From assembly GCA_016926505.1 (NCBI GenBank), contig JAFGOM010000009.1, positions 2,805 through 66,804 of the forward strand: DNA of 64,000 bases, in the 5' to 3' direction. The notes beneath the pieces were generated by a model. The model was not told the DNA's origin. It ran no database searches and worked only from the letters and a program-made list of their open reading frames with translations. Source of the DNA: Methanospirillaceae archaeon (lineage in GTDB: Archaea > Halobacteriota > Methanomicrobia > Methanomicrobiales > Methanospirillaceae). Shown in pieces: positions 44,972 through 62,802 of this stretch. Numbering within the stretch: position 1 is the stretch's first letter; each line of letters begins with the position of its first letter. The translations under genes and the position numbers were made by a program.

Positions 44972-45545
44972 ACAACTACGACAAGATATTATGAGCAGTC
45001 CACCCCGGATCAGTGTGTACCGGGAGATGCCGTTTGCTATCTTCAGATACAATCCGGAAGATGAATGGACGCTCCGATCAGAAACACAAAATCTCGCGAT
45101 CCAACTTCGGAATGCCGGGAAAAATGTGGTCCTATTTTCGATGGAGACGATTCTCTGGGAAATTCTTGAGAAGATAGAAGAGGAGAACCCGGGAGAAGGG
45201 AGACTCGGGGGGCTTATCGACCAGGAGAAGTTTGAGGGGTTTTCTAATATGCAAGAGCAGATGGTGACCTACCTTTCAGATGAAGAGTACTGTCCGCTTT
45301 CGTCCTACATCGAGAAGAAACTTAACGCTTTAAATCCGAAACAGGATATCGGGTTTCTGGTGCATGTCGGGGCACTGGCTCCCCACTTTTACCAGGTCTC
45401 AAAACTGCTGGATGAACTCCAGGGACGGGTTGCCGTCACGACGATTCTCTTTTATCCTGGATCGCTCGAAGAACCGCATGGACTTCGGTTTATGGATATG
45501 CATGATCGTCCTGCTACCGGGGGATACCGGGTGAAGATATACTGA
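44946..45545 (+). CDS. brxB: BREX protein BrxB (DUF1788-like)
   Basis: 'PFAIFRYNPEDEW..L......L...G..V' is the characteristic DUF1788 N-terminus. Second position in the operon. Confidence 0.7.
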   Translation: MSSLTGRIEQLRQDIMSSPPRISVYREMPFAIFRYNPEDEWTLRSETQNLAIQLRNAGKNVVLFSMETILWEILEKIEEENPGEGRLGGLIDQEKFEGFSNMQEQMVTYLSDEEYCPLSSYIEKKLNALNPKQDIGFLVHVGALAPHFYQVSKLLDELQGRVAVTTILFYPGSLEEPHGLRFMDMHDRPATGGYRVKIY

Positions 45546-45549
45546 TACT

Positions 45550-48500
45550 ATGACACTTATTCGAGATATATTAGAACGGGATCTGAATCAGAAGATCGCC
45601 GAGATTATCAAGGTGAATCAGGCTGATGAAGAGACCGTATTTGAAGAGATTACTGAATATGTGGTGACCGATAATATCAGGAAACAGTATTTGGCGGTTC
45701 TGGAAGCGATCTCAAAAGGACCGCAAACTCATCAGACTGATGAGAATATTGGTATCTGGGTGTCTGGTTTCTTTGGGTCAGGTAAATCTTCTTTTGCGAA
45801 GATTCTCGGGTATATCTTAAAAAACCCATCAATTCACGGGAGCTCTGCCAGTGCTCTCTTTAAAGATCAGATCAAGGATGTCCGGGTAAGTGAATATCTG
45901 GATTATATCAATGCAGGTATTCCGACCGATGTGATTATGTTTGATATCTCAACCGATCGGCTGGTCAGGCATGGAGGGCTTGAACCGATAGCTGAGATAA
46001 TGTATCGCAAGCTCCTTGAGTATCTCGGGTATTCTACCGATTTTGATATCGCAGAGCTGGAGATTCAGCTTGAGGAGGAAGAAACAATGGATACGTTCCT
46101 CTCGCTGTTTGCGTCGCTCTATCCTGATACCACCTGGGAGAAAGCCAGAATTGGTGCGACGAAACTCAACCGGGCGAGTGCGACCCTGTATCAGATGGAG
46201 CCGCAGACCTTCCCGACCCCTGCGACCTGGGCTGAGTCGGTGAAGACCCGTCAGGCTGAATTAACAGTGAATAAGATCGTGAGCCGGATTTTTGATCTTC
46301 CTTCCCGAAGGATGCCAGGGAAGGCAATTGTCTTTGTGATAGATGAGGTTGGTCAGTATGTTGCCCGCAGTTCTGATAAAATTGAAGATCTTCGAGCTCT
46401 CGTGGAACAGGTCGGAAAAGAAGGGAAAGCCCGGCTGAAAGAGCGAAAGATACCTGCTCCAATCTGGCTGGTTGTCACCTCGCAAGAGAAACTCAATGAG
46501 GTGATTGCTGCTATTGATAGTAAGAATGTGCAGATTGCCCGGCTGCAGGACCGGTTTGCGTACAAGGTGGATCTCTCCCCTGCTGATATCAGGGAGGTTG
46601 CAAGCCGGAGGGTGCTCTCGAAGAAGAAGGAGGCAGTTCCGGTTCTTCAGACTATGTACCAGCAGTCTGAAGGACGGCTTATTGCACAGTGTTCCCTTGA
46701 GCGGTCCGGTATTGCGACAACGATATCAGCTGATACCTTTGTTGAATCGTATCCATATCTGCCCTACATGATCGATCTCTCCATTCGGCTGATGTCTGCG
46801 ATTCGGCTGCAGTCTGGAGCGGTGAAACATCAGGGAGGAGCGAACCGGACGATCATCAAGCAGGCGTATGAGATGCTGGTCTCTGAACGGACCCGGCTTG
46901 CAGATGCTCCGGTTGGCCGGCTCGTGACCCTTGATCTTATCTATGAACTAGTAGAAGCGAACCTCTCGGTTGAAGGCCGGATGGATATGATGACGATCCT
47001 CTCATCATTTGAGGAGGAAGGAGATCCGGAGTGGCCGGTGCGGTCTGCGAAGGCGATCATGCTTTTGACTTTTGTGCGAGAGATTCCCCGGACACCGAAG
47101 AATATTGCATCGGTTCTGATATCAGAGGTCGGGCAGGATGCTCCGGTTGCCGAGGTGAAGGCTGCGGTGGACCGGTTGCTTGCCAAGCGGTTCATCAAAG
47201 AGACTGAAGAGGGGTATAAACTGCTCTCACAGGGTGAAAAGACCTGGGATGAGGAACGGCAGGGGCTGAAAGGGGTTATCAGACCGGCAGATCGTACTGG
47301 AATTTTGCGTGACCTGCTGGGGAAGAGTCTTACTGATCCGAAACTGAAGACATACCGGCATCAGAATCTGAAGAATTTCAAGGTCTCTTACTCGGTGGAT
47401 GGCACCCGGGTCTCTGATCCCGGCTCCATCGTGGTGTATATTGAGATCTCTGAGGACCCGGAGAAACTTGCGACCGAGATTGAGCGGGTTCAGAGTGAGA
47501 GCAGGGGCAAGGATCGGCAGTATGACATCTTCTGGGTGATGACCGCGACCCCGGAGATTGATGGGATGGTGACTGAGCTCTATGCCTCCCGCGAGATGGT
47601 CAGGAAGTACGACCAGGCACGGGCACAAAATAAGATTAATGCGATCGAGCAGGAGTGCCTTGAAGCTGAGAAGAAGGAGCAGGCCAGGTGGCAGGCCCGG
47701 CTTTCAGAGAAACTCTTCCAGTCGCTCAGTGAGGGGGTCGGGATTTTCCAGGGAGTTCGGAAGGAGAGTGCCTCTCTTGGGAAGGATCTCTCGTCAGCAT
47801 TCCCGGCCCTCTTTGGGTATGCTGCACCGATTCTCTTCCCTCATCTCTCAACCGGGGCGGTGAACCTGAAAGGGGATGAGGCCACCCGGGTGCTTCGCGA
47901 TCAGAACCTCTCCGGTCTGCCTGCAATCTTTTACGAGGGGAATGGCGGCCTCTCGCTTGTCAGGAAAGAGAATAATAATTACGTGGTCAATCCGGAAGCC
48001 CCGATTGTTGCCCTGGTGCTTGAGCCGGTCCGTCGTCAGCATGAGTACGGGGGTGAGGCAATCTCGGGGAAGTACCTTGAGCAGTACTTTGGCGGGTATG
48101 GCTTTGGCTGGGATAGTGCGGTGGTGATGATGACCCTTGCAACCCTCTTCCGGGGTGGGATGCTTGCGGTGATGCATCAGGGGACCACATACGAAAGTTA
48201 TGATGAGAAGGAGGCACAGGCGATCTTCACCACGATCCCGAAGTTTCGGAGTAGTGCGTTTATCCTCTCTGATACGAATATTCCGGTAGAGGCACTGGTG
48301 AGGCTCTCGGATCTCCATCGGGATATGACCGGGCATGAACTGGATATTGATGAGGTGAAGATTGCTGCCGGGTTTGTGGAACTGGCAAATAAGGAGTATG
48401 ACGGGGTGGTCTCACTCGTGGCAACCATCCGATCGAACAAGCTTCCGCAGCTTGAGGATGTCGAGAGTCTGAAAGTGATGCTCCAGGCGATTCGGTCTGC

Positions 48501-49206
48501 CCCTTCATCCCGGGCGGTCTGCAAGGTTCTGCAGGGGTATGATCAGTCACTCCGTCATGCACGGGACCGGTACCTGGTGGTATCACGAAAACTCACCGAT
48601 TCCTTCCTTTCGATTGTTGAAAAGGCTCGGAAACTTGTTCCGATTGCAGCACCGGCAGTTGATAATAGGGACGGAGAGCAGGTAGTTAAAGATTTGGCAG
48701 CCTTGCTTGAGTCTGATGACCTCATTGACCAGGAAGAAGAGTTAGTCAAACTTCTTACAGATGCTGAAGCTGCATACCTGAAAATGTATAAGGATGCTCA
48801 TGCTGAGCGGAACCATATCATCAAGAGTTATATTGAACTCGTGAATGGAAATCCGGATTTTGATGCACTTTCACCAGCACAGCAGGATATTGTGCATGGA
48901 GTTATCAGGCCCTATCTGTGTGAGGGGGAGGGGCTGAATGAGCAGTATGTCTGTCCGGTCTGTAAAGCAAATGTTCCTACGATTATTTCCCTCTCCCCTC
49001 GGGGTGTAGAACTTTTTGAGAAGATGAACCTGATGATCCAGAAATTTCTCATCCCCCCGGAGCGGATCAAGCAGGTGAATATCTCTACGTATCTTCCAAA
49101 TCGGATTGAAGATATGGAGTCCCTTGACCTTGCCGTTGCGGAACTGAAGGCTGAACTAGAGAAATTCCTTGATGAAGGATATACGCTCGTCTTTACCTCA
49201 CGATGA
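45550..49206 (+). CDS. brxC: BREX P-loop ATPase BrxC/PglY
   Basis: 1,218 aa. Walker A 'GFFGSGKSSFAKILGY', Walker B-like 'IVFVIDEVGQY'. Size and position are typical. Confidence 0.85.
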   Translation: MTLIRDILERDLNQKIAEIIKVNQADEETVFEEITEYVVTDNIRKQYLAVLEAISKGPQTHQTDENIGIWVSGFFGSGKSSFAKILGYILKNPSIHGSSASALFKDQIKDVRVSEYLDYINAGIPTDVIMFDISTDRLVRHGGLEPIAEIMYRKLLEYLGYSTDFDIAELEIQLEEEETMDTFLSLFASLYPDTTWEKARIGATKLNRASATLYQMEPQTFPTPATWAESVKTRQAELTVNKIVSRIFDLPSRRMPGKAIVFVIDEVGQYVARSSDKIEDLRALVEQVGKEGKARLKERKIPAPIWLVVTSQEKLNEVIAAIDSKNVQIARLQDRFAYKVDLSPADIREVASRRVLSKKKEAVPVLQTMYQQSEGRLIAQCSLERSGIATTISADTFVESYPYLPYMIDLSIRLMSAIRLQSGAVKHQGGANRTIIKQAYEMLVSERTRLADAPVGRLVTLDLIYELVEANLSVEGRMDMMTILSSFEEEGDPEWPVRSAKAIMLLTFVREIPRTPKNIASVLISEVGQDAPVAEVKAAVDRLLAKRFIKETEEGYKLLSQGEKTWDEERQGLKGVIRPADRTGILRDLLGKSLTDPKLKTYRHQNLKNFKVSYSVDGTRVSDPGSIVVYIEISEDPEKLATEIERVQSESRGKDRQYDIFWVMTATPEIDGMVTELYASREMVRKYDQARAQNKINAIEQECLEAEKKEQARWQARLSEKLFQSLSEGVGIFQGVRKESASLGKDLSSAFPALFGYAAPILFPHLSTGAVNLKGDEATRVLRDQNLSGLPAIFYEGNGGLSLVRKENNNYVVNPEAPIVALVLEPVRRQHEYGGEAISGKYLEQYFGGYGFGWDSAVVMMTLATLFRGGMLAVMHQGTTYESYDEKEAQAIFTTIPKFRSSAFILSDTNIPVEALVRLSDLHRDMTGHELDIDEVKIAAGFVELANKEYDGVVSLVATIRSNKLPQLEDVESLKVMLQAIRSAPSSRAVCKVLQGYDQSLRHARDRYLVVSRKLTDSFLSIVEKARKLVPIAAPAVDNRDGEQVVKDLAALLESDDLIDQEEELVKLLTDAEAAYLKMYKDAHAERNHIIKSYIELVNGNPDFDALSPAQQDIVHGVIRPYLCEGEGLNEQYVCPVCKANVPTIISLSPRGVELFEKMNLMIQKFLIPPERIKQVNISTYLPNRIEDMESLDLAVAELKAELEKFLDEGYTLVFTSR

Positions 49207-52200
49207 CCATGACCGATACACCGGATGTGAACAAGTCTGCACTCCATGATCTCTCCCTGACCGCCCGAAAAACCCTGACCACTGATGTCCAGGATCTTCT
49301 CGAAGGGGTGTATGGTCTCTCTGATAAAGGAGTATTTACGCCGGCAGAGAAGATCCCGGCGATCCAGGATGAACCTGAAGTTGCAGAGACCCGAAGGCTC
49401 CTTGAGCAGCTGTTTGCTGATGAGACGTCTTCAGGTATGCCTGCTCCGGAAGCATACCGGCGACTGGTAAAAGAGGTCTCGTTCACCTGGACCAACCGGC
49501 TCGTTGCTCTCCGGATGATGGAGGTCCGGGGGCTTATCAGGAAATCGCTGGAAGGGCAGGTAGATTCAAATGGGTTCCTCCGGTGGTCCGTTTCTCCGGA
49601 GCAGGCAGCGATCAAGCGAGATATGGGGGATCTCACCCTGAATAGCCGGGGAGAGACCGGGCATACCGGATTTTTATCCTCTCGGTTTGTGGTGATATCG
49701 CCGGTGAGATAGCAGTCCTCTTTGATCCAGAGAATCTTCCGTCTCGTTTATTTCCCCGGCCTCCGGCTTTGAAAGAGATGATCCTGATACTTACGCATCA
49801 GGATCTTGATTCCTCCTGGCAGGCAGAAGAGACGATCGGGTGGGTGTACCAGTACTTCAACGAGGAGGAGAAGGCTGCGGTCTTTGACCGGCTCTATAAG
49901 CAAAAAAAGAAGATCCAGGCAGAGGATATTCCGGCTGCCACCCAGCTCTTCACTCCCCGGTGGATTGTCAAATATCTGGTGCAGAATACCCTGGGGCGTC
50001 AGTGGGTACAGATGCATCCCGATACCCGGCTCGTAGAGTTTCTGGATTATCTCGTTCCCCTACAGGGAGAGGTTCCTCCGGTTCCGATGAAACCGGTCCG
50101 GGAGCTGACTCTCCTGGATCCGGCATGTGGGACGATGCATTTTGGGCTGGTGGCGTTTGATCTCTTTACCCGAATGTACGAAGAGGAACTGGAGAAGGCC
50201 GGGACTTCAGGATGGCCTGTTGCTCCTTCGATAAAGGATACCAGAGAGATTCCTTCTGCGATTATTGAGAATAATATCTGGGGGGCTGATATTGATCTTC
50301 GGGCCATCCAGCTCTCGGCATTGACGCTGTTCCTGAAAGCGAAGGCATACCATAAAGATACGAAGATCACGAAGCATCACCTGGCCCATGCCGGAGTACA
50401 GCCGATCAGCGGAGAGCATTTAGAGAAGTTTGTGCAGGATTCAGAACTGTCTCCATTATATAACCGGATTCTCCGGCAATTACTTGAAGAACTAAAACTT
50501 GCTCCGCATCTGGGGTCATTACTCAAGATCGAGGAGTCGATCACCCGGCTGGTGCAGGAGGAGAAGGACCGATTCGAGGTGAAGGGCAGGCAGATCGATC
50601 TTTCTGGGAAACCATTGGAGGGGTTTGATACAGCTGCTTTTGACGAGGTCTTCTGGGAACGGCTCGGGAATGATATCGCTAAGAAACTTCAGGAGTATGC
50701 AACGGCTCACGGGACCCTGGAAGAGAATTTTTTTGCAGGAGAGGCAGAGAAGGGGCTTCGGTTACTGGAGGTACTGAGGAGAAAGTATGATGTGGTTATT
50801 GCTAATCCTCCTTATCTCCACAATAGAGGAATGAGTATAGAAATTCGTAATTATCTTAACTCGCATTATATTAATTCCGATAAAGACCTATATAGTGCCT
50901 TCATTTATAAATTAATACAATTATCTACTCAATATTCTCGCATTGGAATGATTACTCAACAATCATTCATGTTCACTAACAATTTCGAATTATTACGCAA
51001 TTTTATTGATGAATGTGCACTTTTAGAGTCTATGATCCATTTAGGTCCACATGCATTTGTGGATATTAGTGGGGAAAAAGTCAATACAACTGCATTCATT
51101 TTAAACATTTTTGATACAAAAACTAAATATAAAAGAAATTCTTCAATTTTTTTTAGATTAATTAAAATTCAAGACCCAATTGAGAAAAAAATTAATTTTG
51201 GAAAGTTTTTTTATGATTTAAAATCCAATCACGAAAATAAGTGTTATCTCTATAGTACGATTAATTTTAATAGAATTCCTGAATCTCCTTGGATTTATTG
51301 GTTAAGTTCAGAAATATTATCTTTTTTTGATAATTATAAATTATTATCAGAAATCTCTCCCTCTCGAGTTGGGTTGCAAACAGGAGATAATTTCAGATTT
51401 TTAAAATATTGGTGGGAAATAGAAAATAGAACTACAGTCCTAAAATGGACACCATATATGAAAGGAGGAGAGTATTGTAAGTGGTACGGAAACCAAGAAT
51501 ATATTGTTAATTGGGATAATGATGGTTATGAAATTAAAAATATTGTGGATTCAAAAGGAAAAATTGCATCTAGGCCACAAAATACTGGTTATTATAAGTT
51601 AAAGGGGATAACATATGGAGATTTATCATCAACAGCATTTAATGCTAGGTTATCTCCAGGTGGATTCATTTTCGATGTAAAAGGTTCTTCCCTGTTTCCA
51701 GATAATAATTATAAATTCTTAGGATTATTAAATTCAAAGTTTTCAAATTATATTCTGTCTTCGTTGAATCCCACAGTTTCTTTCCAAGTCGGAGATCTCG
51801 CCCGTCTCCCCATCCCCGATAAAAATTCACCCCTTCTCGAATCACTCGTCGAAAACGCCATCACCCTCGCTAAGATTGACTCAGCCGAAGACGAGATCAC
51901 CTACGACTTCACGGCTCCCCCATTCGCCCCCACCCTCTCCGGCATGACCGATCTCGTGAAACAACGTCATGACCATCTCCGGGACATAGAAAATAAGATC
52001 GACGACGAAGTATATCGTCTCTACGACATCACTGACGAGGATCGGGCAGCCATCGAAACCGAAGTCGGACAGCCTCCGGCACTCCCGACCCCGACACCCG
52101 TGGATCTGGTTAATCACTGGATCGGGTATGCCATCGGGATCATCATGGGCCGGTTCATCCCCGGAGAAGAGGGAGCACTCGGGTCCGGAATCGTGGATGG

Positions 52201-52990
52201 CAAGCACATCTTCTCCCCGGAAACAGAGAAACAACTCCGGGAGCTGACCGATGCCGATGCGGTGACAGTCCTGGAAGACGGGCATCCCGATGACCTGGGA
52301 GTTAAGGTGCTCACTGCCCTGACCCTGATGCTCGGAGAGGAGACGACCACCGAGATTCTGTCGCTTTTGGGCGGGGATATGGCAATAGGAGCAGCGACGA
52401 TCCGATCATTTCTGCTGAAAGATTATTGGAAGATTCATCTCCAGTGGTATCGGAAGCGACCTATCTACTGGCTTATCCAGTCACCAAAGAAAGAATACAG
52501 CTGTTATGTCTTCCATGAGCGGATGACGTCTGATTCGCTCTTTTTGATTCAGTCGGCCCGGTATCTGGGTGGACGGATCAATGCTCTCCGGAGCAGGATC
52601 GGCGAGGTCATGGAGGCTATTCAGACTGCTGAAGGCCGGGAGCGGAAGGCTCTTGAGAAGGAGCGGGAACAGCTCGAGAAGGCCCTTGTAGATTGCGAAG
52701 AACTGGATAGTTCTCTCACCCGGATCATTCAGAAGACGGATGAGACCGGGAAGACGGTTGGATGGAAACCCGAACTCGATGACGGGGTGATCCTGAATAT
52801 GGCACCGCTCCGGGAGCTCTTCCCGTCGTGGAAAGTTGAACCGGTGAAATTCTGGAAAGAACTGGAAGAGGGGAAATACGATTGGTCATATACTGCAATG
52901 CGATACTGGCCGACGCGGGTTAGGGAGGCATGTAAGCGGAATAAGAGCTACGCGATTGCACATGGGTTGGAAGAGGAGTATGAGGGATGA
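49203..52990 (+). pseudogene. pglX: BREX N6-adenine DNA methyltransferase PglX, split by a 1-nt frameshift at about 49646-49660
   Basis: The N-terminal 169-aa ORF (49203..49712) and the 49769..52990 ORF are both PglX-like. The downstream frame is open from 49646 and reads 'AYRIFILSVCGDIAGEIAVLFDPENLPSRLFPRP...WVYQYFNEEEK...TPRWIV...ANPPY'. Confidence 0.8.
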
Positions 52991-53754
52991 AAAAATTAAT
53001 TCTATCAATTCTGACTACTCCAGGAACACTCCCTATTATGACAGGTATTATTGGATTTTTTAGTGGATATTTGCTTAATCGGCATTTTGACAGGCAGAAA
53101 GCTCTCCGAGATAAAGCCAGACAACTCGATTCTGTTTTATACTCTGATATGAGACCTGAAATTCTTGAAGTGATCAAATCTCTCGAAAAAGGCACATACA
53201 TTAAAGTAAAGGGGGAAGGAATTGATGAAATATCTATTACTGATAAAAAAATACGTGAGATGTTATTAGGTTCTAAAGTCTTTATCGAAAAATCAGGTAA
53301 ATTGGAGCTCATCTATACTCAAGATAAGGTGTTTACCAAACCCGCGAATGAAATTATCTCTTTGGTTGAACAGTTTACAAAAGAACTGAACGATTTCCTC
53401 ACATCTCTAAAGGCTATTGATACGGCCATCATTCCATCTTCTTTTGAATCGGATATTTTTCGAACCTTCAAAGTGGAACGAGAATCGGCAAAAATGAAAG
53501 AATTTTCAATGAATCTCATTTATTGTGCAATATTAGATTCTCAAAATGCATTTACAGGCGGAAGAACCTGGGTAGATGAAATGGTTCAAAATAAATTTCC
53601 TGTTCTCCAATTGTTTGTTTTTCAATATGACTCACTCAAAAGGAAATCTGAAGAACTAGCAGAAAAAAGAAATGAATTAATTGAGATATTATCAAAAATA
53701 GAAAAACAAATCTCTAAACTTCATAATCGGTTTCTGAATGAGAGATTGGTATAA
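52987..53754 (+). CDS. Hypothetical protein with an N-terminal TM helix and a C-terminal coiled coil (nested cassette gene 1)
   Basis: ATGA overlap with the pglX stop. 'LILSILTTPGTLPIMTGIIGFFSGYLL' TM segment. AT-rich. No family was recognised. Confidence 0.6.
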   Translation: MKKLILSILTTPGTLPIMTGIIGFFSGYLLNRHFDRQKALRDKARQLDSVLYSDMRPEILEVIKSLEKGTYIKVKGEGIDEISITDKKIREMLLGSKVFIEKSGKLELIYTQDKVFTKPANEIISLVEQFTKELNDFLTSLKAIDTAIIPSSFESDIFRTFKVERESAKMKEFSMNLIYCAILDSQNAFTGGRTWVDEMVQNKFPVLQLFVFQYDSLKRKSEELAEKRNELIEILSKIEKQISKLHNRFLNERLV

Positions 53755-53774
53755 AATATAAATAGTGGATTCGA

Positions 53775-54206
53775 ATGACAAAATATTCAAATTTAATTGA
53801 TGATTATAAATCCTCAGCCAAACGGCATCTAAATGGTTCGGACACACTCTTGAGAGAAAACCAGTATGAAGAATCGGCATATCTCGCAGGGTATGTATCT
53901 GAGTGCTCAATAAAGAAGATGGTTCAACTGATCTTAAAAAATGATGCTCCAATATTTCAGCATGATATTTCATTATTATCTAATCAGTTAATACAATTAA
54001 TTCAAAAGACGGCTGAATTTTCATTATCTAAATATATACCAACCCCGCAAGGAAATTTGTTCGAAGGTTCAATTAATAATTGGGATCCTGTTCTTCGGTA
54101 CAAAACTGACGGGACTATAAATGAAACAACAGCAAAAGAATGGTATCGTGAAGCTTCAGTTCACTACAATATTCTGCAGGAGATGTGGAAGGATGGATAC
54201 TCATGA
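53775..54206 (+). CDS. HEPN-like small protein with an Rx4H motif (nested cassette gene 2)
   Basis: 'AKRHL..LL....YEESAYLAGYVSECSIKK', 'HDISLL', 'WDPVLRY' and 'YREASVH' (R125..H130) match the HEPN layout. Confidence 0.55.
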   Translation: MTKYSNLIDDYKSSAKRHLNGSDTLLRENQYEESAYLAGYVSECSIKKMVQLILKNDAPIFQHDISLLSNQLIQLIQKTAEFSLSKYIPTPQGNLFEGSINNWDPVLRYKTDGTINETTAKEWYREASVHYNILQEMWKDGYS

Positions 54207-55513
54207 ATATTCACCTTGATGAAGCCCGGAATAATACTCTTACCTTTCTAAGGTCACTTCTGAAAAAGAACACGGATATTGAAAAGATTATCTTTATTGA
54301 AGATGTATTCAGCCGATTCAGAATAATATACTGGACCCAGAAGCCATATGACTTCGACAAGATAAGTGCGACTATCGAAAAAACGGCAAGACCATTCTGG
54401 TCTCAGGAATATATCAATATTTCAGTCACATCTCCAGCCTACGATCGTGAATTCTATGATCAGAGCTGGGACGAAGGAAAAGAAGATGACGAAATGGATT
54501 CTCTTCGGATACTTGAGCGGCATCGCAACCGCCGTGGATGGTTTGAACCATTCACAAAACCCCTTTGGCTCCCATTAGATCCTGGTAACCCGCGGACTCC
54601 CCCAATCATCACCTTCTACTCATTCAAAGGAGGAATTGGGAGAACCACCGGACTTGCAGCTTTCGCAATAGATCGGGCACATGCAGGAGAGAGGGTAGTA
54701 GTCCTTGATTGCGATCTGGATGCTCCAGGTATTGACCGACTTATCACCGGAGATCCTACTATCCAGGCTCCATGGGGGATTGTTGATTATCTCCTCGAAG
54801 CCCCGTTGATTGAATTACCCCTTACTGATTACAAACACCGTTGTCAGTCAGAAAAAATTACCGGGGAAGGAGAAATACTGGTTTTTCCAGCCGGCAAACT
54901 TGATGACAGATATCCGGAAAAATTAGCCCGGATCGATCTCAATCAGTCTACGGATGATTCCGATCATCCTCTGATGAGACTAATCTCCAGAATCGCAGCC
55001 GAATTAATTCCGGACTGGATTCTGATTGACGCACGAAGTGGCTTGTCTGAAATATCCGGGTTAGTTCTTTCCGATTTATCCCATCTCCTCGTATTATATG
55101 GCACCACTTCAGAGCAGAGTTGGGATGGTCTTCGATATATTATTGAAAGAGCAGGAAAAGAGAGAATAAACCGTGATACCCCACAACAACCCTGCATTAT
55201 TGTTCAGTCATTGATACCTGAAGTAAAATCAACCCCATCTGCCCAGGAATGGTTTGAGACGAGATCCCTCGATCTATTTTCAGAGATATACTACCGCGAA
55301 GACCCTGAGGATCCTTCAGAACGAGAAGAGAATTATTGGTATCTTACCGATATCAATGATGAAAAAGCCCCTCATCTCCCGGTAGGGATTACATATTCAC
55401 CCGGACTTGCCTTCTTTCATACCCTTTCTGATATTGTTCCTGACATTCGGAATAATAAAGACTTTCAGGCTTTGGTACAGAAGATCTATGATTATTTCAA
55501 ACCAGATGTATGA
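54203..55513 (+). CDS. ParA/MinD-like (SIMIBI) ATPase with a variant Walker A 'KGGIGRTT' and an N-terminal extension of about 135 aa (nested cassette gene 3)
   Basis: 'ITFYSFKGGIGRTTGLAAFA', 'VVVLDCDLDAPG', 'WILIDARSGLSE'. ATGA overlaps with both neighbours. The ORF is also open from 54185. Confidence 0.7.
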   Translation: MNIHLDEARNNTLTFLRSLLKKNTDIEKIIFIEDVFSRFRIIYWTQKPYDFDKISATIEKTARPFWSQEYINISVTSPAYDREFYDQSWDEGKEDDEMDSLRILERHRNRRGWFEPFTKPLWLPLDPGNPRTPPIITFYSFKGGIGRTTGLAAFAIDRAHAGERVVVLDCDLDAPGIDRLITGDPTIQAPWGIVDYLLEAPLIELPLTDYKHRCQSEKITGEGEILVFPAGKLDDRYPEKLARIDLNQSTDDSDHPLMRLISRIAAELIPDWILIDARSGLSEISGLVLSDLSHLLVLYGTTSEQSWDGLRYIIERAGKERINRDTPQQPCIIVQSLIPEVKSTPSAQEWFETRSLDLFSEIYYREDPEDPSEREENYWYLTDINDEKAPHLPVGITYSPGLAFFHTLSDIVPDIRNNKDFQALVQKIYDYFKPDV

Positions 55514-57006
55514 CATTAACACAGGAACAGCAAAGATCTCTCATCCATGACGTATCATCCCTGGATAGCCACGGGCACGGAGATATGGAAGATAAAGAGA
55601 ATTTCCTCAGATATTTTTATCCGGTTCCTGCTCATATCCGTGGCTTTGATCCTGAAGTCGTCATTATCCTTGGAAAGCGAGGGGTTGGGAAATCTGCATT
55701 ATATGAAGCGGTAACAACCCATAGGTTAATTTCAGTGATTTCACGTTTTTCTCCACAGCAACGAATTCAGCAAGCCTCATTATCAAAGACCTCTTGGTGC
55801 AAGGGATATAATCCACAAAAAAGGTTTCCTGACCCACAGGTAATATTTAAGATATTTGAAAAAGACTGGAATGGGCGCATTATTGAACAGATTTTCTGGC
55901 ATTGTTACCTTCTTCGTGAATTATCTGATAACTTACCAGAAGTCGATAAAAACTCTTTAGAATTGATAATATCAGGGGAAAATTATGAGCCCCTTAAAAT
56001 TATAGAAGCATTTATTGCAGCTGGGGAGTTTCCATATTACGCATTAGATCGTCTTGATCAATCACTCGAAAAAGAAGGGCGATTTATCTATATTGCATAC
56101 GATGCGTTAGATTCTTTAGGAATCGAACAATGGGAATTGCATCGCCGATTAATATCAGGTCTCATTTCATTTTGGGCAAAACAGAGCAGGAGGTGGTCCA
56201 ATATCCGTGCAAAAATCTTTATTCGGACTGATCTCTATGAACGCTATCTGCAGATCGGAGAACCAGATGTAATTAAACTCGCAGCGAATAGAGTGGAGAT
56301 AACATGGCTGCCTCATCACCTCTATGCAATGTTGATTAAACGTATTGCAAATATCAATCCATCTTCATTAGCATATTGTCAGGACGCAGGAATTCACTTT
56401 AAAAAAGATAATGTCCTTGGTCATATCCCCCAAATCTCTTCACTAGATGATGCCGATTTGTTTATTACAAGGTTTATCGGGCAATATATGGGTTCTGATA
56501 ATAGAAAGGGAAAGACGAATACTTGGATACTAAATCATCTACAGGATGGCAAAAAAAATGCCAATCCACGACCTTTAATAAGATTGATCGGTAAAAGTGC
56601 GACTGCTCAAAAAGATAGTACCTTACCATCTCCTCCCCATCTTATTTCGCCGGTAACAATCCGAAGAGAATTAGACCAAATATCTGTCGAAGAGATCATG
56701 AGCGCTCAGAGTGAGTGGCCATGGATTAATGACCTTAAACAGAAACTTGAAGGAAAACAGATCCCTATGGAGGAAAAAGATCTGGAACAGATTATTACGA
56801 AATTATTTAGAACTGAATGGAAAGAGGGATCGAAAAACAGGCCACCTTCTGATAATCCATCTGCATTCATTGAGTATCTCGATAAACTTGGATTAATTAA
56901 GGAGAGGCCTGACAAGAGAATAGATGTTACTGATTTATATCGTGCGGGACTTGGCTTAAAACGAAAAGGCGGAGTTAGAAAAAACTCCCCTTCAAAGAAG
57001 AAATAA
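55510..57006 (+). CDS. P-loop NTPase of unknown family (nested cassette gene 4)
   Basis: Walker A 'ILGKRGVGKSALYEAV', Walker B 'FIYIAYDALD', then 'KIFIRTDLY'. Basic C-terminal tail. Confidence 0.7.
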   Translation: MTLTQEQQRSLIHDVSSLDSHGHGDMEDKENFLRYFYPVPAHIRGFDPEVVIILGKRGVGKSALYEAVTTHRLISVISRFSPQQRIQQASLSKTSWCKGYNPQKRFPDPQVIFKIFEKDWNGRIIEQIFWHCYLLRELSDNLPEVDKNSLELIISGENYEPLKIIEAFIAAGEFPYYALDRLDQSLEKEGRFIYIAYDALDSLGIEQWELHRRLISGLISFWAKQSRRWSNIRAKIFIRTDLYERYLQIGEPDVIKLAANRVEITWLPHHLYAMLIKRIANINPSSLAYCQDAGIHFKKDNVLGHIPQISSLDDADLFITRFIGQYMGSDNRKGKTNTWILNHLQDGKKNANPRPLIRLIGKSATAQKDSTLPSPPHLISPVTIRRELDQISVEEIMSAQSEWPWINDLKQKLEGKQIPMEEKDLEQIITKLFRTEWKEGSKNRPPSDNPSAFIEYLDKLGLIKERPDKRIDVTDLYRAGLGLKRKGGVRKNSPSKKK

Positions 57007-57039
57007 TCCGATTTTCCTCTCAAATATCATCCAAAAGAT

Positions 57040-58137
57040 ATGGAATCCCCTAGAATCCCCTCTGATTATCCCACCTTCCTCACCGACCTGAAGAACCGTA
57101 TCCGCCAGGCCCAACTCAAAGCCACAATATCAGTAAACCGGGAACTCATTCTCCTCTACTGGCAGATCGGCAAAGATATTCTCACCAATCAGGAGATACT
57201 CGGCTGGGGAGCAAAGGTCATCGACCAACTTTCCCAGGATCTCCGCACAGAGTTCCCTGATATGAAAGGTTTCTCGGTCAGAAACCTCAAGTATATGCAG
57301 GCTTTTGCTGCCACTTATCCAGACCCTGAATTTGTGCAGCAGGTTGCTGCACAATTGCCCTGGTTCCATATCTGTCTCCTCATAACCAGAATAAAAAACC
57401 CTAATGAACGGTTGTTTTACCTGAATCAGGCCATCGAACATGGGTGGAGCAGGAGCATTCTTACTCATCAGATTGATCTCAACCTCTATGATCGTCAGGG
57501 GAAAGCCATCACAAATTTCTCCCATACGCTCCGTTCCCCAGCATCAGATCTGGCTCGAGAGACTCTGAAAGATCCCTATATCTTCGATTTCCTGACGCTC
57601 TCTGAAGAAGCACAGGAAAGGGACCTTGAAGATGCCCTCATCTCTCATATTCAGCAATTCCTGCTCGAACTCGGCATCGGATTTGCGTTTCTTGGAAGAC
57701 AATATCCCCTAACCGTTGGAGATCAAGATTTTTATCTCGACCTCCTCTTCTATCATACCCGTCTCCACTGCTACGTGGTCATTGAACTCAAGGCTCATGA
57801 ATTCAAACCGGAATGTGCAGGAAAATTAAATTTCTACCTCTCTGCAGTGGATGATCTCATAAGGCAGGAAGGAGACAACCCTACCATCGGGATTCTCCTG
57901 TGTCGTGAGAAGAACCGGGCGATTGCAGAATATGCCCTGCGGGATATCCAGAAACCCATCGGAGTATCAGAGTATCAATTGACCAGGGCATTGTCTGAAG
58001 ACCTGAAAGAACGACTTCCGAGTGTTGAAGAAATTGAAAAGACATTGGAAGAGATTGAACTGAAGACAATGTCATCAATGTCTGGAGAAATTGAGATTAA
58101 CTATAAGGATGGGACAAAATATCATGAAAAATTCTAA
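57040..58137 (+). CDS. DUF1016/YhcG-family PD-(D/E)xK nuclease
   Basis: N-terminal 'I..AQ.KA..SVNRELILLYWQIGKDIL' and 'FSVRNLKYMQAF'. C-terminal nuclease core 'DLLFYHTRLHCYVVIELK'. Confidence 0.8.
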   Translation: MESPRIPSDYPTFLTDLKNRIRQAQLKATISVNRELILLYWQIGKDILTNQEILGWGAKVIDQLSQDLRTEFPDMKGFSVRNLKYMQAFAATYPDPEFVQQVAAQLPWFHICLLITRIKNPNERLFYLNQAIEHGWSRSILTHQIDLNLYDRQGKAITNFSHTLRSPASDLARETLKDPYIFDFLTLSEEAQERDLEDALISHIQQFLLELGIGFAFLGRQYPLTVGDQDFYLDLLFYHTRLHCYVVIELKAHEFKPECAGKLNFYLSAVDDLIRQEGDNPTIGILLCREKNRAIAEYALRDIQKPIGVSEYQLTRALSEDLKERLPSVEEIEKTLEEIELKTMSSMSGEIEINYKDGTKYHEKF

Positions 58138-58168
58138 CACAGTTGCACGTAACCTTCGGTGACCCACT

Positions 58169-60751
58169 ATGCCAACCGCAACAGAATACCTTAAAACCCA
58201 GATAACCTCAAGCCTCAAGAACCATCACCTGGTTGTCCTCTTTGATCCCGAGAAACACTACTCAGATATTATCAAAAACCTGGACCTGAACGGGATACCC
58301 ATTCATACCTATACCGGTTCATTCATCGAACTCCGGAAAGAGATAGCCGGACTCATGACAGGGGAGAAACCACCCGATCTCCTCCTCTACATTCCGATGG
58401 CTGAAAAGGATTCCAACAATGCACTCATCGGCTTCACCAAACCGGGTGTCACCCTCCAGCCCGGTCAGCACCCCTGGGAACGAAACACCCGGCTATCGGT
58501 TATTGCTCGACAGGTTCTGAAGAACCATCTGTCAGAACAGGAGATGAGTGATATTGAAGCAAAGATCGAGGCAGGAAAGCTGACGCTCTCTGACATCGAT
58601 ATCATGGCTGAATCAGTCCGGCCCCCTCTCCCTGAAGCTCTCTCCCTCGTATTTCGCACGAAGTCACCACAGGAAACCCTCCTCTCATTCATCACTGATG
58701 AGAGCCGGGATAACGATCTCATAACAAAGGGACTCATCCCTGACCTGATATCAGTAATTCAGACCACAACCGGATATACTCCGGGAGATGATCAACCAGA
58801 GACCATCAGACCAAATCTCATCAAATATCTCCTGTTCTCTGCGTTCATCAGTGAGATTGGAGAAACTCCGTCAGAACTCGTAAAGGTTCCTCATACAGAA
58901 GGTAAAGAACTCCAGGATATCTGCAGGGATATCATCTACTCCTGGCAGAGCCGACGGAAAACCGCAGCTCTCTATGAGCAATACGCACGAAATATCGAGA
59001 ATACCCTCCATCTCTCAAACCTGACCATTTCATCTGAACAACTCACCGTGAGCCGTGTATTCCCCGGAACCGAAAAGAAACTCATCGCTCTTGCAGAAGA
59101 GGCATGTTTGTCAGGAACCATTGCTGACCTCGATATTAAAACCCTGGCAAGCGATCGCCTTCACCTATACTGGTCACAGCAGGATCCGGTCATCAGTTTC
59201 AGATGGAAGATTCTGGAAGAGATCAGCCAGTTTACCTCCCTCTCAAAAGAGATCGAGACAAAAATCAGAGAAAAAGTATGGCAGGCTCAGGATCTCATCT
59301 CTGCCTATATCAACCCGCAGCAGGGATGGTATCACCTTGACACCCTCCATCGAACCATACTCAAACACCAGTATGATGACACCCTGGACTCCGGGTGGCA
59401 GGATGACTTCCTGGATCGCATCATCGGAAAAGTGCAGAAGCAGTACTCGACCACTGCCGACCTGATGACCAATGCCCTCACGCTTGCAATCGCCCAGGAA
59501 GGAACCCGGCAGATAACCAGTCCGATGCAGACCAGAACCTTCTCCTCATATGTGAGGCAGGATGAAAACCCTGGAAAGACTGCATATATCCTCGTCGATG
59601 CATTCCGATACGAGATGGGAGTTGCTCTTCAGGAGGTACTCAGTGGCACACATGAACTCTACGCAACCATTGGAACCCTCCCCTCGTACACTCCGGTGGG
59701 AATGGCCGCCCTCATGCCAAACGCGGAAAAAGAGTTTGCCATTATCGCATCACCACAAGGAGGGCTGACTTCGCTCGTTCATGGTACGCCGCTGACTACC
59801 CGGGAAGAACGGATTACGTACCTCAGAGACCAGGTAACCAGTGACCTCCTCGCTTGCAAACTCTCTGATCTCTTCCCCAGGCCGAAGAAAAAGATAGAAG
59901 ACCAGATCAGGAGTAGTCCATTCATCCTCATCACCTCCCTGGAGATCGATGCAGCAGGGGAACAATTAGAACCGCATCTCGCCAGGCAGAGTATGGATGA
60001 GATCATCCGCTATCTGAAACGGGTCATCTCACACCTCACCCGCCTCGGTGTTACCCGGATTGTGATCACTGCCGATCATGGGTACCTCTTTGGGGAGGAA
60101 CTCACCGAGGCAATGAAGATAGATCCCCCAAGCGGTCAGACTATCGCAATACATCGCCGGTTCTGGGCAGGAACCGGAGGAGACGCTCGCGACTCCTATG
60201 TTCGGATACGACCTGAAATGGTAGGAGTGAAGAGCGATCTCGAGTTTGCCTACCCTGCAGGTATCGGGGCATTCAAAGCAAAAGGAGGAGGAACCGCCTA
60301 TCACCATGGGGGAATATCTCTTCAGGAACTAATCATTCCTGTTCTCGTTATCGAACATACCGGCCAGGTCCTTTCATCAGATTCAAGTATCTCCTGGTCA
60401 CTTGCAATCAGCGGAGACAAAATATCCAGTCGGATGGTTTCAGTAAAGATCAACGGGACGATCACGAGTATCACCTGCGACCAGGTCCCGAAAGTCAGAG
60501 TAGAGATCCGGTCAGGAGATCTGACAATATCAAACCCGCTGACCGCTCATTATGACTACCGGGAAGCAACAGGTGACATAAGCATGAGGATAAACCATGA
60601 CCCGGCGAAAAACCGAAGTCTTGAGGAGAACACCGCAATAATGCAGGTACATACCATCCCGAAAGGTCAGGCAACCATCCATCTTCTTGACAGCGAGACC
60701 GACGTAGAGCTCACAAAAATAGGTCCATTCCCCGTAGACATCAGCTTTTAG
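58169..60751 (+). CDS. pglZ: BREX alkaline-phosphatase-superfamily protein PglZ
   Basis: 860 aa. 'AYILVDAFRYEMG', 'ITADHGYLF', 'YHHGGISLQELIIPV'. Confidence 0.85.
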   Translation: MPTATEYLKTQITSSLKNHHLVVLFDPEKHYSDIIKNLDLNGIPIHTYTGSFIELRKEIAGLMTGEKPPDLLLYIPMAEKDSNNALIGFTKPGVTLQPGQHPWERNTRLSVIARQVLKNHLSEQEMSDIEAKIEAGKLTLSDIDIMAESVRPPLPEALSLVFRTKSPQETLLSFITDESRDNDLITKGLIPDLISVIQTTTGYTPGDDQPETIRPNLIKYLLFSAFISEIGETPSELVKVPHTEGKELQDICRDIIYSWQSRRKTAALYEQYARNIENTLHLSNLTISSEQLTVSRVFPGTEKKLIALAEEACLSGTIADLDIKTLASDRLHLYWSQQDPVISFRWKILEEISQFTSLSKEIETKIREKVWQAQDLISAYINPQQGWYHLDTLHRTILKHQYDDTLDSGWQDDFLDRIIGKVQKQYSTTADLMTNALTLAIAQEGTRQITSPMQTRTFSSYVRQDENPGKTAYILVDAFRYEMGVALQEVLSGTHELYATIGTLPSYTPVGMAALMPNAEKEFAIIASPQGGLTSLVHGTPLTTREERITYLRDQVTSDLLACKLSDLFPRPKKKIEDQIRSSPFILITSLEIDAAGEQLEPHLARQSMDEIIRYLKRVISHLTRLGVTRIVITADHGYLFGEELTEAMKIDPPSGQTIAIHRRFWAGTGGDARDSYVRIRPEMVGVKSDLEFAYPAGIGAFKAKGGGTAYHHGGISLQELIIPVLVIEHTGQVLSSDSSISWSLAISGDKISSRMVSVKINGTITSITCDQVPKVRVEIRSGDLTISNPLTAHYDYREATGDISMRINHDPAKNRSLEENTAIMQVHTIPKGQATIHLLDSETDVELTKIGPFPVDISF

Positions 60752-60759
60752 GTGAACTC

Positions 60760-62802
60760 ATGGAACCACTTGTAAAAGACGAACTGGATAAGAAAGCAAC
60801 CAAAGTATTTGCAGGGAGAGTCGTCAGAAAAGACCTGGTTCGGAATGTAAAAGTAGGAGCCAATGTTCCGGTTTTTGTCCTGGAATTTCTCCTCGGTACC
60901 TATTGTGCCAGTGACGATCAGGTTGCCATAGATGCCGGCCTGAAGATAGTAAACTCAACCCTCTCTGAGAACTTCGTCCGTCCTGACGAATCCACCAAAG
61001 CCCAATCCCTTGTCCGGGAACGGGGCAAGCACATGATCATCGATAAAATAAAGGTGCGGTACGATTCAGAAGAGGATAAGTACTGGGCTGAACTGGTTAA
61101 TTTCAGCCATAAATATGTGCATATTCCGGAGAAGTACGTCATCCAGTTTGATCGTCTGCTCCTTGGGGGAATCTGGGCTCAGGTCACCATCCGGCATATG
61201 TATGACGAGGAGGCTACCGGGAAGAAGAGCCCGTTCTGGATAGATAATATAAAACCGATCCAGTTGGCCTCGTTCAATCTTGATGAGTATAAAGAAGGAA
61301 GGAAAGCATTCACCACTGATGAGTGGATAGATTTCCTCATTCGCAGTCTCGGGATGCAGCCATCAGAATTTAACCGGCGGCTGAAGATGCTCTATCTACT
61401 CAGGCTGGTTCCGTTCTGTGAGCATAACTATAATCTCATCGAACTCGGACCCAGGGGGACCGGAAAATCCTACGCATACCAGGAGATCTCCCCTTATGGG
61501 ATTCTTCTCACCGGACCGACCACGGTTGCAAACCTCTTCTATAACATGGGAACCGGGAAGATGGGGCTCATTGGCCTTTGGGATGTAGTTGCATTTGACG
61601 AGGTTGCTGATCTGCAAAAAATGCCTAAAGAGATCATCACAATGCTCAAGACCTATTGTGAGTCTGGATCTTTTGCACGCGGCCGGGAACAACTAGCAGC
61701 ATATGCATCCCTTGCCATGTTCGGCAATACGAACCAACCGATTGATGTCATGGTGAAATCATCTCATCTCTTTATGCCGCTGCCTGATATCATCCGAACC
61801 GATATGGCATTCATCGACCGGATTCATTCCTATCTTCCTGGATGGGAGATCCCAAAGATGCAAACCCGGTTCTTTACCAGCAATTACGGGTTTGTCGTTG
61901 ATTACTTAGCCGAGGCTATCCGGGATCTTCGCAAATATAATTTCACTGATGTTATCGATCAATACTTCTCATTTGGAACCCATCTAAACGCTCGTGATGT
62001 AAAAGCAGTCAGAAGAACCGTCTCAGGAATGATGAAACTCCTCTACCCTCATAGTGAATATACCAAAGAGGAACTCGCCGAGGTTCTGGAGCTCTCACTT
62101 GAATGCCGGAGAAGGGTGAAGGAACAACTCAAGAAGATGGGATCGTTTGAGTACTATCAGACTTCATTCTCTTATATTGACAACGAAACTCGAGCAGAAG
62201 TATATGTCGGTGTTCCGGAAGAAGGAGGACGGGGACTGATATCTCCGGACCCACTCGCTCCTGGATCGGTATATTGTGCATCGGTTGACACCGAAGGAAA
62301 AGTCGGTCTTTACCGGATAGAAGTGGGGATGAGTGCCGGAACCGGAAAACTCAAATTTCGTGGAGGAATTGCAGGAAGTATGAAAGAGTCAATTCAGCGG
62401 GCTTTTTCATACATCGAGAGTCATAAAGTTTCGATGGGAATCGGCCAGGAGTTTGATACCTCAGATTTCCATGTCGAGGCAATTGACCTATTAAGTAACC
62501 GCATCCCGGCAGATTCTGGAGTTGCATTCATCACCGCTGTTTATTCAGCAATCAGATCTCATCCGGTCCGACCAGGAGTTGTCATACTTGGTGATATCAG
62601 TATTCAAGGGAACATCAAACCGTTATCTTCACTCATTGAGGTTCTCCAGAATACCATGGATAACGGAGGAAAGTCAGCAATTATTCCGTTAGAAAATAAG
62701 CGGATGTTTCTTGAAGTGTCCGGTGATATTCTCGAGCAGGTAGATCCGATTTTTTATGGAGATCCGATAACAGCGGCAATGAAAGCGTTAGGGTTGCATT
62801 AG
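60760..62802 (+). CDS. brxL: BREX Lon-like protease BrxL
   Basis: 680 aa. AAA-like 'IELGPRGTGKSY', 'VAFDEV', and a C-terminal Lon protease-like domain. Terminal position in the operon. Confidence 0.85.
   Translation: MEPLVKDELDKKATKVFAGRVVRKDLVRNVKVGANVPVFVLEFLLGTYCASDDQVAIDAGLKIVNSTLSENFVRPDESTKAQSLVRERGKHMIIDKIKVRYDSEEDKYWAELVNFSHKYVHIPEKYVIQFDRLLLGGIWAQVTIRHMYDEEATGKKSPFWIDNIKPIQLASFNLDEYKEGRKAFTTDEWIDFLIRSLGMQPSEFNRRLKMLYLLRLVPFCEHNYNLIELGPRGTGKSYAYQEISPYGILLTGPTTVANLFYNMGTGKMGLIGLWDVVAFDEVADLQKMPKEIITMLKTYCESGSFARGREQLAAYASLAMFGNTNQPIDVMVKSSHLFMPLPDIIRTDMAFIDRIHSYLPGWEIPKMQTRFFTSNYGFVVDYLAEAIRDLRKYNFTDVIDQYFSFGTHLNARDVKAVRRTVSGMMKLLYPHSEYTKEELAEVLELSLECRRRVKEQLKKMGSFEYYQTSFSYIDNETRAEVYVGVPEEGGRGLISPDPLAPGSVYCASVDTEGKVGLYRIEVGMSAGTGKLKFRGGIAGSMKESIQRAFSYIESHKVSMGIGQEFDTSDFHVEAIDLLSNRIPADSGVAFITAVYSAIRSHPVRPGVVILGDISIQGNIKPLSSLIEVLQNTMDNGGKSAIIPLENKRMFLEVSGDILEQVDPIFYGDPITAAMKALGLH

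Follow-up and report, generated by a model that had tools for sequence, protein, structure and literature searches.

Five co-directional genes, here called g1 to g5, lie between pglX and pglZ of a type 1 bacteriophage exclusion (BREX) operon in a 64,000-nucleotide (nt) stretch of DNA from a Methanospirillaceae archaeon (assembly GCA_016926505.1, contig JAFGOM010000009.1, positions 2,805 to 66,804), which we refer to as a whole as the window. This junction probably holds three separate, horizontally acquired cargo units, namely g1, the trio g2-g3-g4 and g5, and the trio is probably an immune module operated by a nucleoside triphosphatase (NTPase) switch. The trio encodes a small, predicted HEPN-fold protein (g2), a ParA-like NTPase (g3) and a predicted AAA+ ATPase of the Sll1717 family (g4). 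Judged by its profile matches, it is an archaeal member of PDC-M28, a predicted system that is already catalogued as a candidate.

An earlier note on this DNA, made from the sequence alone, had described g1 to g4 as a candidate four-gene defence module in a combination that resembled no recognised system. The sequence facts that it listed hold: the open reading frames (ORFs), the ATGA overlaps at 52987 (pglX/g1), 54203 (g2/g3) and 55510 (g3/g4), the 20-nt gap between g1 and g2, and the AT-richness of the genes, with hand counts of G+C that are exact (20 of 60 positions for 53041-53100 and 35 of 60 for 50101-50160). The motifs KGGIGRTT, GKRGVGKS and IYIAYDALD were located in the predicted proteins, and the identification of the host as a type 1 BREX agrees with the PADLOC profiles, which matched six core genes. 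The broader view, that of acquired cargo nested in BREX with a core that is plausible as an NTPase-based defence module, is supported by a strong conserved linkage and by defence-gene neighbours. The note's alternative, in which the genes modulate BREX itself, may also hold. However, the combination is not uncatalogued, because g2, g3 and g4 match PDC-M28A, PDC-M28B and PDC-M28C over their full length and the system is listed, as a candidate only, in Payne et al. 2024. A profile assignment of this kind was among the results that the note itself had named as counting against its proposal.

A three-gene operon conserved across bacteria and archaea

The genes g2, g3 and g4 form a conserved, translationally coupled and co-inherited operon across bacteria and archaea. 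One genome per GTDB species was scanned with the g4 family alignment, which gave 80 loci, all of them with g4 (80/80). The linkage of the two NTPase genes, which the earlier note had proposed to check, was observed in 78 of these loci, where g3 lies directly upstream of g4. Of the small genes that might travel with them, the HEPN-fold g2 does so (upstream of g3 in 71/80), whereas the gene for the transmembrane-like protein, g1, does not (0/80). The order g2-g3-g4 and the shared strand are invariable, and most of the misses correspond to contigs that end early. The genes are tightly packed, with median junctions of −1 nt for g2-g3 and −4 nt for g3-g4, and 97-99% of the junctions measure 30 nt or less. 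The pairwise-distance matrices of the three families are strongly correlated (r = 0.91 for g3-g4, 0.83 for g2-g3 and 0.82 for g2-g4).

Each of the NTPases has more than 300 homologues, which are spread over more than 15 phyla of bacteria and several families of methanogens, and the window trio shares about 40% identity with most of the family. The 80 loci come from Acidobacteriota, Planctomycetota, Verrucomicrobiota, Desulfobacterota, Myxococcota, Elusimicrobiota, Omnitrophota, NC10/Rokubacteria, Spirochaetota, Chloroflexota, Latescibacterota, KSB1, Binatia, Gemmatimonadota, Bacteroidota, Betaproteobacteria and several methanogen lineages. Remote trios with 23-30% identity are present on plasmids of Enterobacter, Calothrix and Sphaerotilus, and their architecture is unchanged. 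Carriage by viruses amounted to one remote match in IMG/VR and none in the GenBank phages.

No fourth gene is conserved on either flank of the 80 loci; the largest cluster of neighbouring genes appears in 10 of them, and the other clusters reflect synteny within related Vicinamibacterales. The window does not therefore contain a four-gene unit, as had been claimed, because g1 is missing from all 80 related loci and its homologues occur elsewhere, in unrelated contexts. The g1 family is tiny, with only 20 representatives among 1.84 billion proteins in an exhaustive HMMER search, and the window protein had no match in the Pfam, PADLOC or NCBIfam profile libraries. It carries a single N-terminal hydrophobic segment of borderline strength (mean Kyte-Doolittle value of 1.68 over residues 4-22), followed by a helical/coiled-coil body. 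The depositor annotation begins g1 at Met18 (238 residues); homologues favour the longer form of 255 residues. Its homologues adjoin a PIN-like gene, an MNT nucleotidyltransferase, a CoiA-like gene or a KAP NTPase, and never the trio, in a thin sample of four exact-match look-ups, mostly on short contigs. From these results, g1 is an orphan, a rare and probably membrane-anchored cargo that lies outside the conserved trio. The gene that follows the closest g1 homologue (31% identity; locus L081, positions 819-998) begins with MIDTNVFLY, a PIN-like N-terminus, and the family may pair with different small nuclease-type genes, the contigs being short.

One of the remote trios (locus L089, positions 3053-6389) is carried by the Enterobacter asburiae SD4L plasmid NZ_CP063442 (INS04_RS21955-21965), a conjugative plasmid of the IncFIB/IncFII type. 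There, the g2-like and g3-like proteins have profile probabilities of 97.7% and 99.9%, the latter with the motif KGGVGRSS, and the neighbours are a tyrosine recombinase and a TIR-domain gene. Given its tractable host, this trio is a handy candidate for experiments.

Predicted properties of the trio proteins

The product of g3 matches PDC-M28B (expectation value, E, of 2.2e-56; profile positions 1-426 of 438) and the NCBIfam family NF047398 (AAA_KGGVGR, 'KGGVGR-motif variant AAA ATPase'; 162 bits, cutoff 90). Its AlphaFold2 (AF2) model, with a mean predicted local confidence (pLDDT) of 85, shows a ParA/Soj/MinD core and an extra N-terminal alpha/beta domain (approximately residues 1-115), and Foldseek matched it to Soj, pNOB8 ParA, MinD, BcsQ and NifH (E of about 1e-7; template modelling score, TM, of up to 0.73 when normalised to the target). 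The Walker A motif reads KGG[VIL]GR[ST]T in the 25 aligned members: the signature lysine (K142) is retained, but in 25/25 the P-loop lysine is replaced by arginine (R147), which departs from the canonical ParA/MinD motif KGGxGK[ST] with its two lysines. The DxDLDAPG switch and the Walker B aspartate are also retained in the aligned members. K-to-R mutants of P-loop NTPases bind nucleotide and show little hydrolysis. By analogy with such mutants, the constant presence of arginine in place of the P-loop lysine suggests that g3 binds nucleotide with little or no hydrolysis.

In g3, residues ~100-122 hold a basic motif of high conservation, RLRxLxRHRNRxAWF (window positions 54500-54570). Its residues R102, R106, R108, R110 and W113 are near-invariant, and it sits in the lower-confidence linker between the N-terminal domain and the ParA core, where it could represent a putative nucleic-acid-binding or partner-binding element.

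For g4, the match to PDC-M28C covers profile positions 5-479 of 480 (E 4.1e-67), and residues 27-469 align with positions 7-421 of the 454 of NCBIfam NF047389 (P-loop ATPase Sll1717 family; 105.3 bits, cutoff 75). From its AF2 model (pLDDT 86) and sequence, g4 is predicted to have a AAA+ core similar to those of ORC/Cdc6/STAND proteins, together with a helical domain, a region at the C-terminus that resembles a winged helix, and a basic tail, which is conserved. The best Foldseek matches were Cdc6, ORC2, BrxC-N, Dark (an Apaf-1-like STAND protein) and RdrA, with E values from 3.5e-5 to 5e-2 and TM scores of just 0.3-0.45, and neither NTPase family has a close relative among the solved structures in the PDB. 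The Walker A motif GxRGxGK[ST] is conserved and intact in the window copy. The family has YDELD as its Walker B motif, whereas YDALD, with alanine in place of glutamate, is read in the window copy and in the four relatives closest to it. When g1 to g4 were compared with the named systems of PADLOC (PARIS, Septu, Gabija etc.), only marginal matches of PtuA to g4 were obtained (E 0.038-0.045).

The small protein encoded by g2 matches PDC-M28A (E 1.4e-10, profile positions 3-136 of 138). Against the Pfam HEPN family PF05168, the window copy scored 17.3 bits (0.0054), under the 22-bit cutoff; in the g2 family assembled from the retrieved trio loci, 43 of the 46 members match PF05168, with a best value of 2.4e-10. 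The HEPN structure 1wol was matched only weakly at the profile level (E 0.3), and a word-indexed homologue search with g2 returned only g2 itself. The Pfam and profile evidence suggests that g2 is a small HEPN-fold protein of the PF05168 type.

The invariant columns of the g2 family are H18, L25, Y36, G39, Y40, E43, K47, H63, L68, W103, R108 and Y109; in the remote Enterobacter branch H63 is lost, and H18, E43...K47 and W103...R108-Y109 are kept. The earlier note had taken the string R125-x4-H130 of the window copy as a catalytic pair. It is present in this protein but unconserved across the family, and no Rx4-6H motif is shared by the members: 18 of the 46 lack an arginine in the 10 residues upstream of the invariant H63, with scattered positions in the others, and 39 of the 46 lack a histidine in the 8 residues after the invariant R108. 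The string R125-x4-H130 can thus be ruled out as a HEPN active site, and the R125A/H130A mutants that had been proposed aim at the wrong residues, because other positions are the invariant ones. For the same reasons, judging from the alignment, RNase activity of g2 is doubtful.

Two loci depart from the usual arrangement at this gene: in L047 the g2 of the trio is internally deleted, and in L029 an unrelated ORF lies upstream instead.

The trio in and beside defence loci

BREX genes are present in 10 of the 80 loci, although in L076 they are reduced to a short brxC-like fragment upstream of the trio and on the opposite strand. In L012 the order is BrxA-B-C, the trio, an ABC ATPase, DUF3226, PglX as one ORF of 1614 residues, and PglZ. 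In four other loci (L020, L025, L002 and L028), from Desulfobacteraceae and Planctomycetota, the trio lies exactly between a 692-residue PglX-N ORF, which comprises the methyltransferase module, and a 908-residue PglX-C ORF, which corresponds to the specificity part. Both halves are intact, stop and start codons overlap, and together the halves align contiguously to the single PglX of L012 (L012 12182-17026; L020 6174-14181). We also considered that the 908-residue protein downstream of the trio in L020 might be something other than PglX; this was ruled out, since it is the C-terminal part of the PglX that is intact in L012. Between L020 and L025 the identity of PglX-C is 64%, compared with 89-94% for the other BREX proteins. 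The remaining arrangements are PglX-C, trio, PglZ (L048) and trio, PglZ (9e-254), BrxL (L068 and L069). On the Sphaerotilus plasmid, the remote trio is located between pglX and DUF6079/pglZ of a BREX type 2.

Some additional genes were observed at these loci. The ABC ATPase and DUF3226 pair directly after the trio of L012 (10099-11996) is of the AAA_21/AAA_15 type, and a PIN-domain gene lies just ahead of pglZ in L020 (14444-14899). In L031 (7896-14190; Desulfobacteraceae UBA2174), a g4 homologue is the only trio gene between PglX-N and PglX-C, and the whole 21-kb locus is devoid of g2 and g3; either the trio has decayed here or the Sll1717-family ATPase is used on its own.

The PADLOC profiles were also applied to 292 ORFs beside the trio in the other 60 loci. 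They revealed components of MADS (mad3 four times, with a best E of 9e-146, and mad6), Hma (HmaA twice and HmaB/HmaC three times, E = 0) and DISARM (DrmA/DrmD twice and DrmMI twice), as well as one further BrxC and DpdE. The other matches were to HEC-01A/AriA-like ATPases, PD-T4-6, type I specificity subunits, type IIG enzymes, PDC-S01 and PDC-S02. Because the system-specific matches are very strong, the association of the trio with multi-gene methylation-based defence systems is clear in qualitative terms. Of the enrichment beside defence genes that the earlier note had proposed to examine, the adjacency was found, as a qualitative observation.

Possible function of the trio

We favour the idea that the trio is a self-contained immune module switched by NTPases. 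In this module, g4 would be the likely sensor or switch and would bind a nucleic acid or protein cue from the virus. The g3 protein would most likely bind ATP and dimerise with little or no hydrolysis, serving as a nucleotide-dependent adaptor or as a DNA-binding platform. The only candidate effector would be g2, through a putative non-canonical site formed by H18, E43, K47, H63, R108 and Y109, unless it is merely a regulatory subunit. As its output, the module is presumed to arrest growth or cause abortive infection and in this way to provide a backup for BREX.

Several observations weigh against this idea. No component of the trio has a clear toxic enzymatic activity, as the g2 family does not have the Rx4-6H motif that defines HEPN RNases. 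The TM scores of g4 denote a weak structural resemblance, so its assignment as sensor rests on analogy, and the roles of all three proteins are inferred. Apart from the very strong system-specific matches, the flank enrichment is qualitative, without a matched background control. Finally, no demonstration of anti-virus activity for PDC-M28 or its homologues was found in the searchable literature.

A rather unlikely alternative is functional coupling of the trio to its host system: it would watch over BREX-like methylation systems as a guard or backup and be triggered, for example, when a viral DNA mimic or an anti-restriction protein inhibits PglX. It could then be likened to PrrC with EcoprrI, or to PARIS with Ocr, and its two predicted DNA-binding NTPases could act as decoys for DNA mimics. 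Such coupling is favoured by independent insertions at no fewer than four type 1 BREX junctions (after brxC in L012; inside pglX in L002, L020, L025 and L028; after pglX-C in L048; before pglZ in L068, L069 and the window) and one in BREX type 2, every one of them with overlapping or abutting ORFs, together with the copies beside MADS, Hma and DISARM genes and the precedents discussed in Payne et al. 2024 and PMC11341690. However, in most of the 80 loci the surrounding 7-10 kb contain no BREX genes, the trios of Enterobacter and Calothrix have a TIR-domain gene and a gene for type III restriction as their neighbours instead, and no trigger is known. In addition, embedding need not imply functional coupling, because it is common for many unrelated defence genes. 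If true, a link of this kind to BREX-like systems would be the most interesting outcome.

Quite unlikely, in our opinion, is that PDC-M28 is more than ordinary island cargo, namely a dedicated companion of multi-gene immune systems based on methylation (BREX types 1 and 2, MADS, Hma and DISARM), whose two NTPases of DNA-binding type sense that the host system is inhibited or evaded, for instance through DNA-mimic anti-restriction proteins, and then trigger a non-canonical HEPN-fold effector. Should this be so, the copies inside pglX, which leave one intact half-gene for the methyltransferase and another for the specificity part, would be evidence that PglX also functions when divided in two.

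The trio might also have no part in defence and be a maintenance module of mobile elements, similar to a partition or replication system, or an addiction module carried along as a passenger of defence loci; we consider this very unlikely. The ParA/Soj fold of g3 and the ORC/Cdc6-like fold of g4 are compatible with it, as are the remote relatives on plasmids, five of them conjugative, and the integrase that adjoins the Enterobacter trio. Nevertheless, the trio lacks a partner of the ParB or centromere-like kind, no integrase is conserved in its neighbourhood, the insertion in the window has no terminal repeats or tRNA, and most copies are chromosomal, within operons with overlapping codons. The change of the P-loop lysine to arginine is unusual among functional partition ATPases, the trio is essentially absent from collections of phages and viruses, and bacteria are not known to use ORC-type initiators. 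A maintenance role outside defence is, in summary, unlikely.

Highly improbable is the four-gene system of the earlier note, in which the two NTPases would release a HEPN RNase and/or g1 as a membrane effector: the ATGA overlap of the g1 start with the pglX stop, the short distance to g2, the similar G+C content of g1 and g2 and the frequency of membrane effectors in abortive-infection systems are in its favour, but it is contradicted by the absence of g1, or of any conserved fourth gene, from the trio loci, by the g1 homologues found without the trio and by the lack of conservation of R125/H130.

The self-contained NTPase-switch module would combine parts that are unusual for immunity: a ParA-like NTPase with arginine for lysine, an ORC/STAND-like AAA+ protein and a HEPN fold without its catalytic motif. 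Working out its function would give a new mechanistic class of NTPase-switch immunity, and would also test whether nesting in BREX-like loci amounts to functional coupling. For this purpose, the three-gene unit and its truly conserved residues should supersede the four-gene model and the HEPN mutants proposed with it.

The host BREX operon and its cargo

The host locus in the window is a full type 1 BREX system, with BrxA, BrxB, BrxC, PglX, PglZ and BrxL in a single co-directional cluster according to the PADLOC profiles (Table 1). It is surrounded by ordinary metabolic genes, which include acetyl-CoA synthetases, an MFS transporter, malic enzyme and CbiQ.

Table 1. Features of the BREX operon and of the genes at the pglX-pglZ junction (window coordinates; aa, amino acids)
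Feature	Coordinates	Strand	Basis
Upstream half, type 1 BREX operon	44192..52990	+	
brxA	44192-44971	+	PADLOC
brxB	44940-45545	+	PADLOC
brxC	45550-49206	+	PADLOC
pglX, two frames	49203-49712 and 49769-52990	+	PADLOC and frameshift reading
g1, 255 aa, transmembrane-like N-terminal segment	52987..53754	+	ORF
g2, 143 aa, predicted HEPN fold, PDC-M28A	53775..54206	+	PADLOC, Pfam
g3, 436 aa from ATG, ParA/Soj/MinD-fold NTPase, PDC-M28B	54203..55513	+	PADLOC, NCBIfam, AF2, Foldseek
g4, 498 aa, Sll1717-family P-loop ATPase, PDC-M28C	55510..57006	+	PADLOC, NCBIfam, AF2, Foldseek
g5, 365 aa, YhcG/DUF1016 PD-(D/E)xK nuclease, PDC-S02	57040..58137	+	Pfam, PADLOC
Downstream half, BREX operon	58169..62802	+	
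pglZ	58169-60751	+	PADLOC PglZ 7e-91
brxL	60760-62802	+	PADLOC BrxL 3.8e-284

Besides the gap between g1 and g2, the intergenic distances at the junction are 33 nt for g4-g5 and 31 nt for g5-pglZ. The G+C content (GC) of the genes is 0.33 for g1, 0.35 for g2, 0.44 for g3 and 0.39 for g4, compared with 0.47-0.51 for brxB, brxC, pglZ and brxL and 0.466 for the entire window. The deposited proteins with exact matches bear the locus tags JXA44_00905-00915. A search for mobile-element ends around positions 52500-58300 returned only short repeats at chance level, with no terminal repeats and no tRNA.

The third cargo unit, g5, matches YhcG_C (4.3e-68) and DUF1016_N (4.1e-47) in Pfam and PDC-S02 in PADLOC (2.8e-157). 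A YhcG/DUF1016 nuclease is also found downstream of the trio in the closest relative, L001 (3119-4192; 61% identity), and in L075 (12553-13623; Leptothrix). In L001, an ABC-type AAA_15/AAA_21 ATPase comes after the nuclease.

In the window, the frame of pglX is broken: its 169 N-terminal codons and the other 1073 are read in different frames. The main ORF is open from 49646, with its first start codon at 49769, which places the shift between 49646 and ~49692; the reading of the sequence points to 49683-49692. No long homopolymer or simple repeat was observed at this site in the window, and the frameshift is either a genuine inactivating mutation or a sequencing or assembly error in this metagenome-assembled genome. 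Since g4 has alanine for glutamate in its Walker B motif and pglX is frameshifted, the window copy of the trio may be impaired; alternatively, either change could be specific to this lineage or an artefact of the assembly.

A separate feature of the window pglX is an AT-rich stretch at 50900-51900, with a GC of 0.31 that falls to 0.27 over 51000-51500; the parts that border it have values of 0.50 and 0.55. This GC resembles that of g1 and g2. The stretch spans the region homologous to the split point between PglX-N and PglX-C and the start of the specificity part, which suggests that the target-recognition module may have been swapped by recombination from an AT-rich donor.

Comparison with known systems

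PDC-M28 is one of 145 'phage defence candidates' reported by Payne, Hughes, Fineran & Jackson (bioRxiv 10.1101/2024.01.29.577857). Its entry in supplementary file 8 (CAS_00115, FAM_01482>>FAM_02546>>FAM_01036, count 121) reads 'Assign as candidate PDC-M28'. These systems were predicted and put into PADLOC 'to enable future functional studies', and the experiments of that work dealt with Hma-embedded candidates and not with the PDCs. PDC-M28 was found by the same logic as that of the earlier note, from genes embedded in BREX, DISARM or type I restriction-modification loci, and it stands as a prediction, for which Payne et al. 2024 give no annotation, mechanism or test. The window trio has the same three proteins in the identical order, with full-length matches to the three models, and its genes are adjacent and co-directional as A>>B>>C at 53775-57006. 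It differs from the bulk of PDC-M28 in that it is archaeal, has the Walker B substitution in g4 and is accompanied by an unrelated transmembrane-protein gene and a YhcG nuclease. No mention of PDC-M28, KGGVGR or Sll1717 was found in the searchable literature, and nothing was found there on the combination of HEPN, ParA-like and anti-phage. In this sense, the present finding is the rediscovery of a widespread candidate that was already catalogued and is worth testing.

Nested cargo of this kind has precedents. PARIS is embedded in the Salmonella BREX (PMC11341690), as the earlier note had mentioned, and a survey from 2026 on the diversity of BREX covers 'auxiliary/backup effectors' of the HEPN, PIN and PD-(D/E)xK kinds that are embedded in such loci, in general terms and without the PDC-M28 trio (PMC12839542). 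With PARIS, with BrxU (GmrSD, pEFER) and with these embedded effectors, the trio shares its position as co-directional cargo between core BREX genes and a proposed function as a BREX backup (PMC11341690; PMC12839542). The proteins, however, are unrelated: PARIS, OLD and HEC-01 consist of ABC ATPases with TOPRIM partners, whereas the trio has a ParA-like NTPase with the K-to-R change and an ORC/STAND-like AAA+ protein.

The g2 protein is similar to HEPN-MNT (HepT/MntA) and other HEPN RNase toxins in its small size and its predicted stand-alone HEPN fold of the PF05168 type, but it differs from them by the lack of Rx4-6H and of an MNT partner, and by its different invariant residues. Regarding the two NTPases, Kaur, Burroughs, Iyer & Aravind (eLife 2020, PMC7159879) described conflict systems in which AP/STAND ATPases are coupled to MinD/ParA-like domains that are predicted to be inactive. 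The trio has in common with these systems a predicted STAND/ORC-type NTPase together with a MinD/ParA-like module that is predicted to be catalytically impaired. In the systems of Kaur et al. 2020, the ParA-like domain occurs as a fusion in systems of the vWA-MoxR ternary or peptide-processing kind; in the trio, by contrast, it belongs to a protein of its own, which has an additional N-terminal domain and a predicted HEPN-fold partner, without vWA/MoxR.

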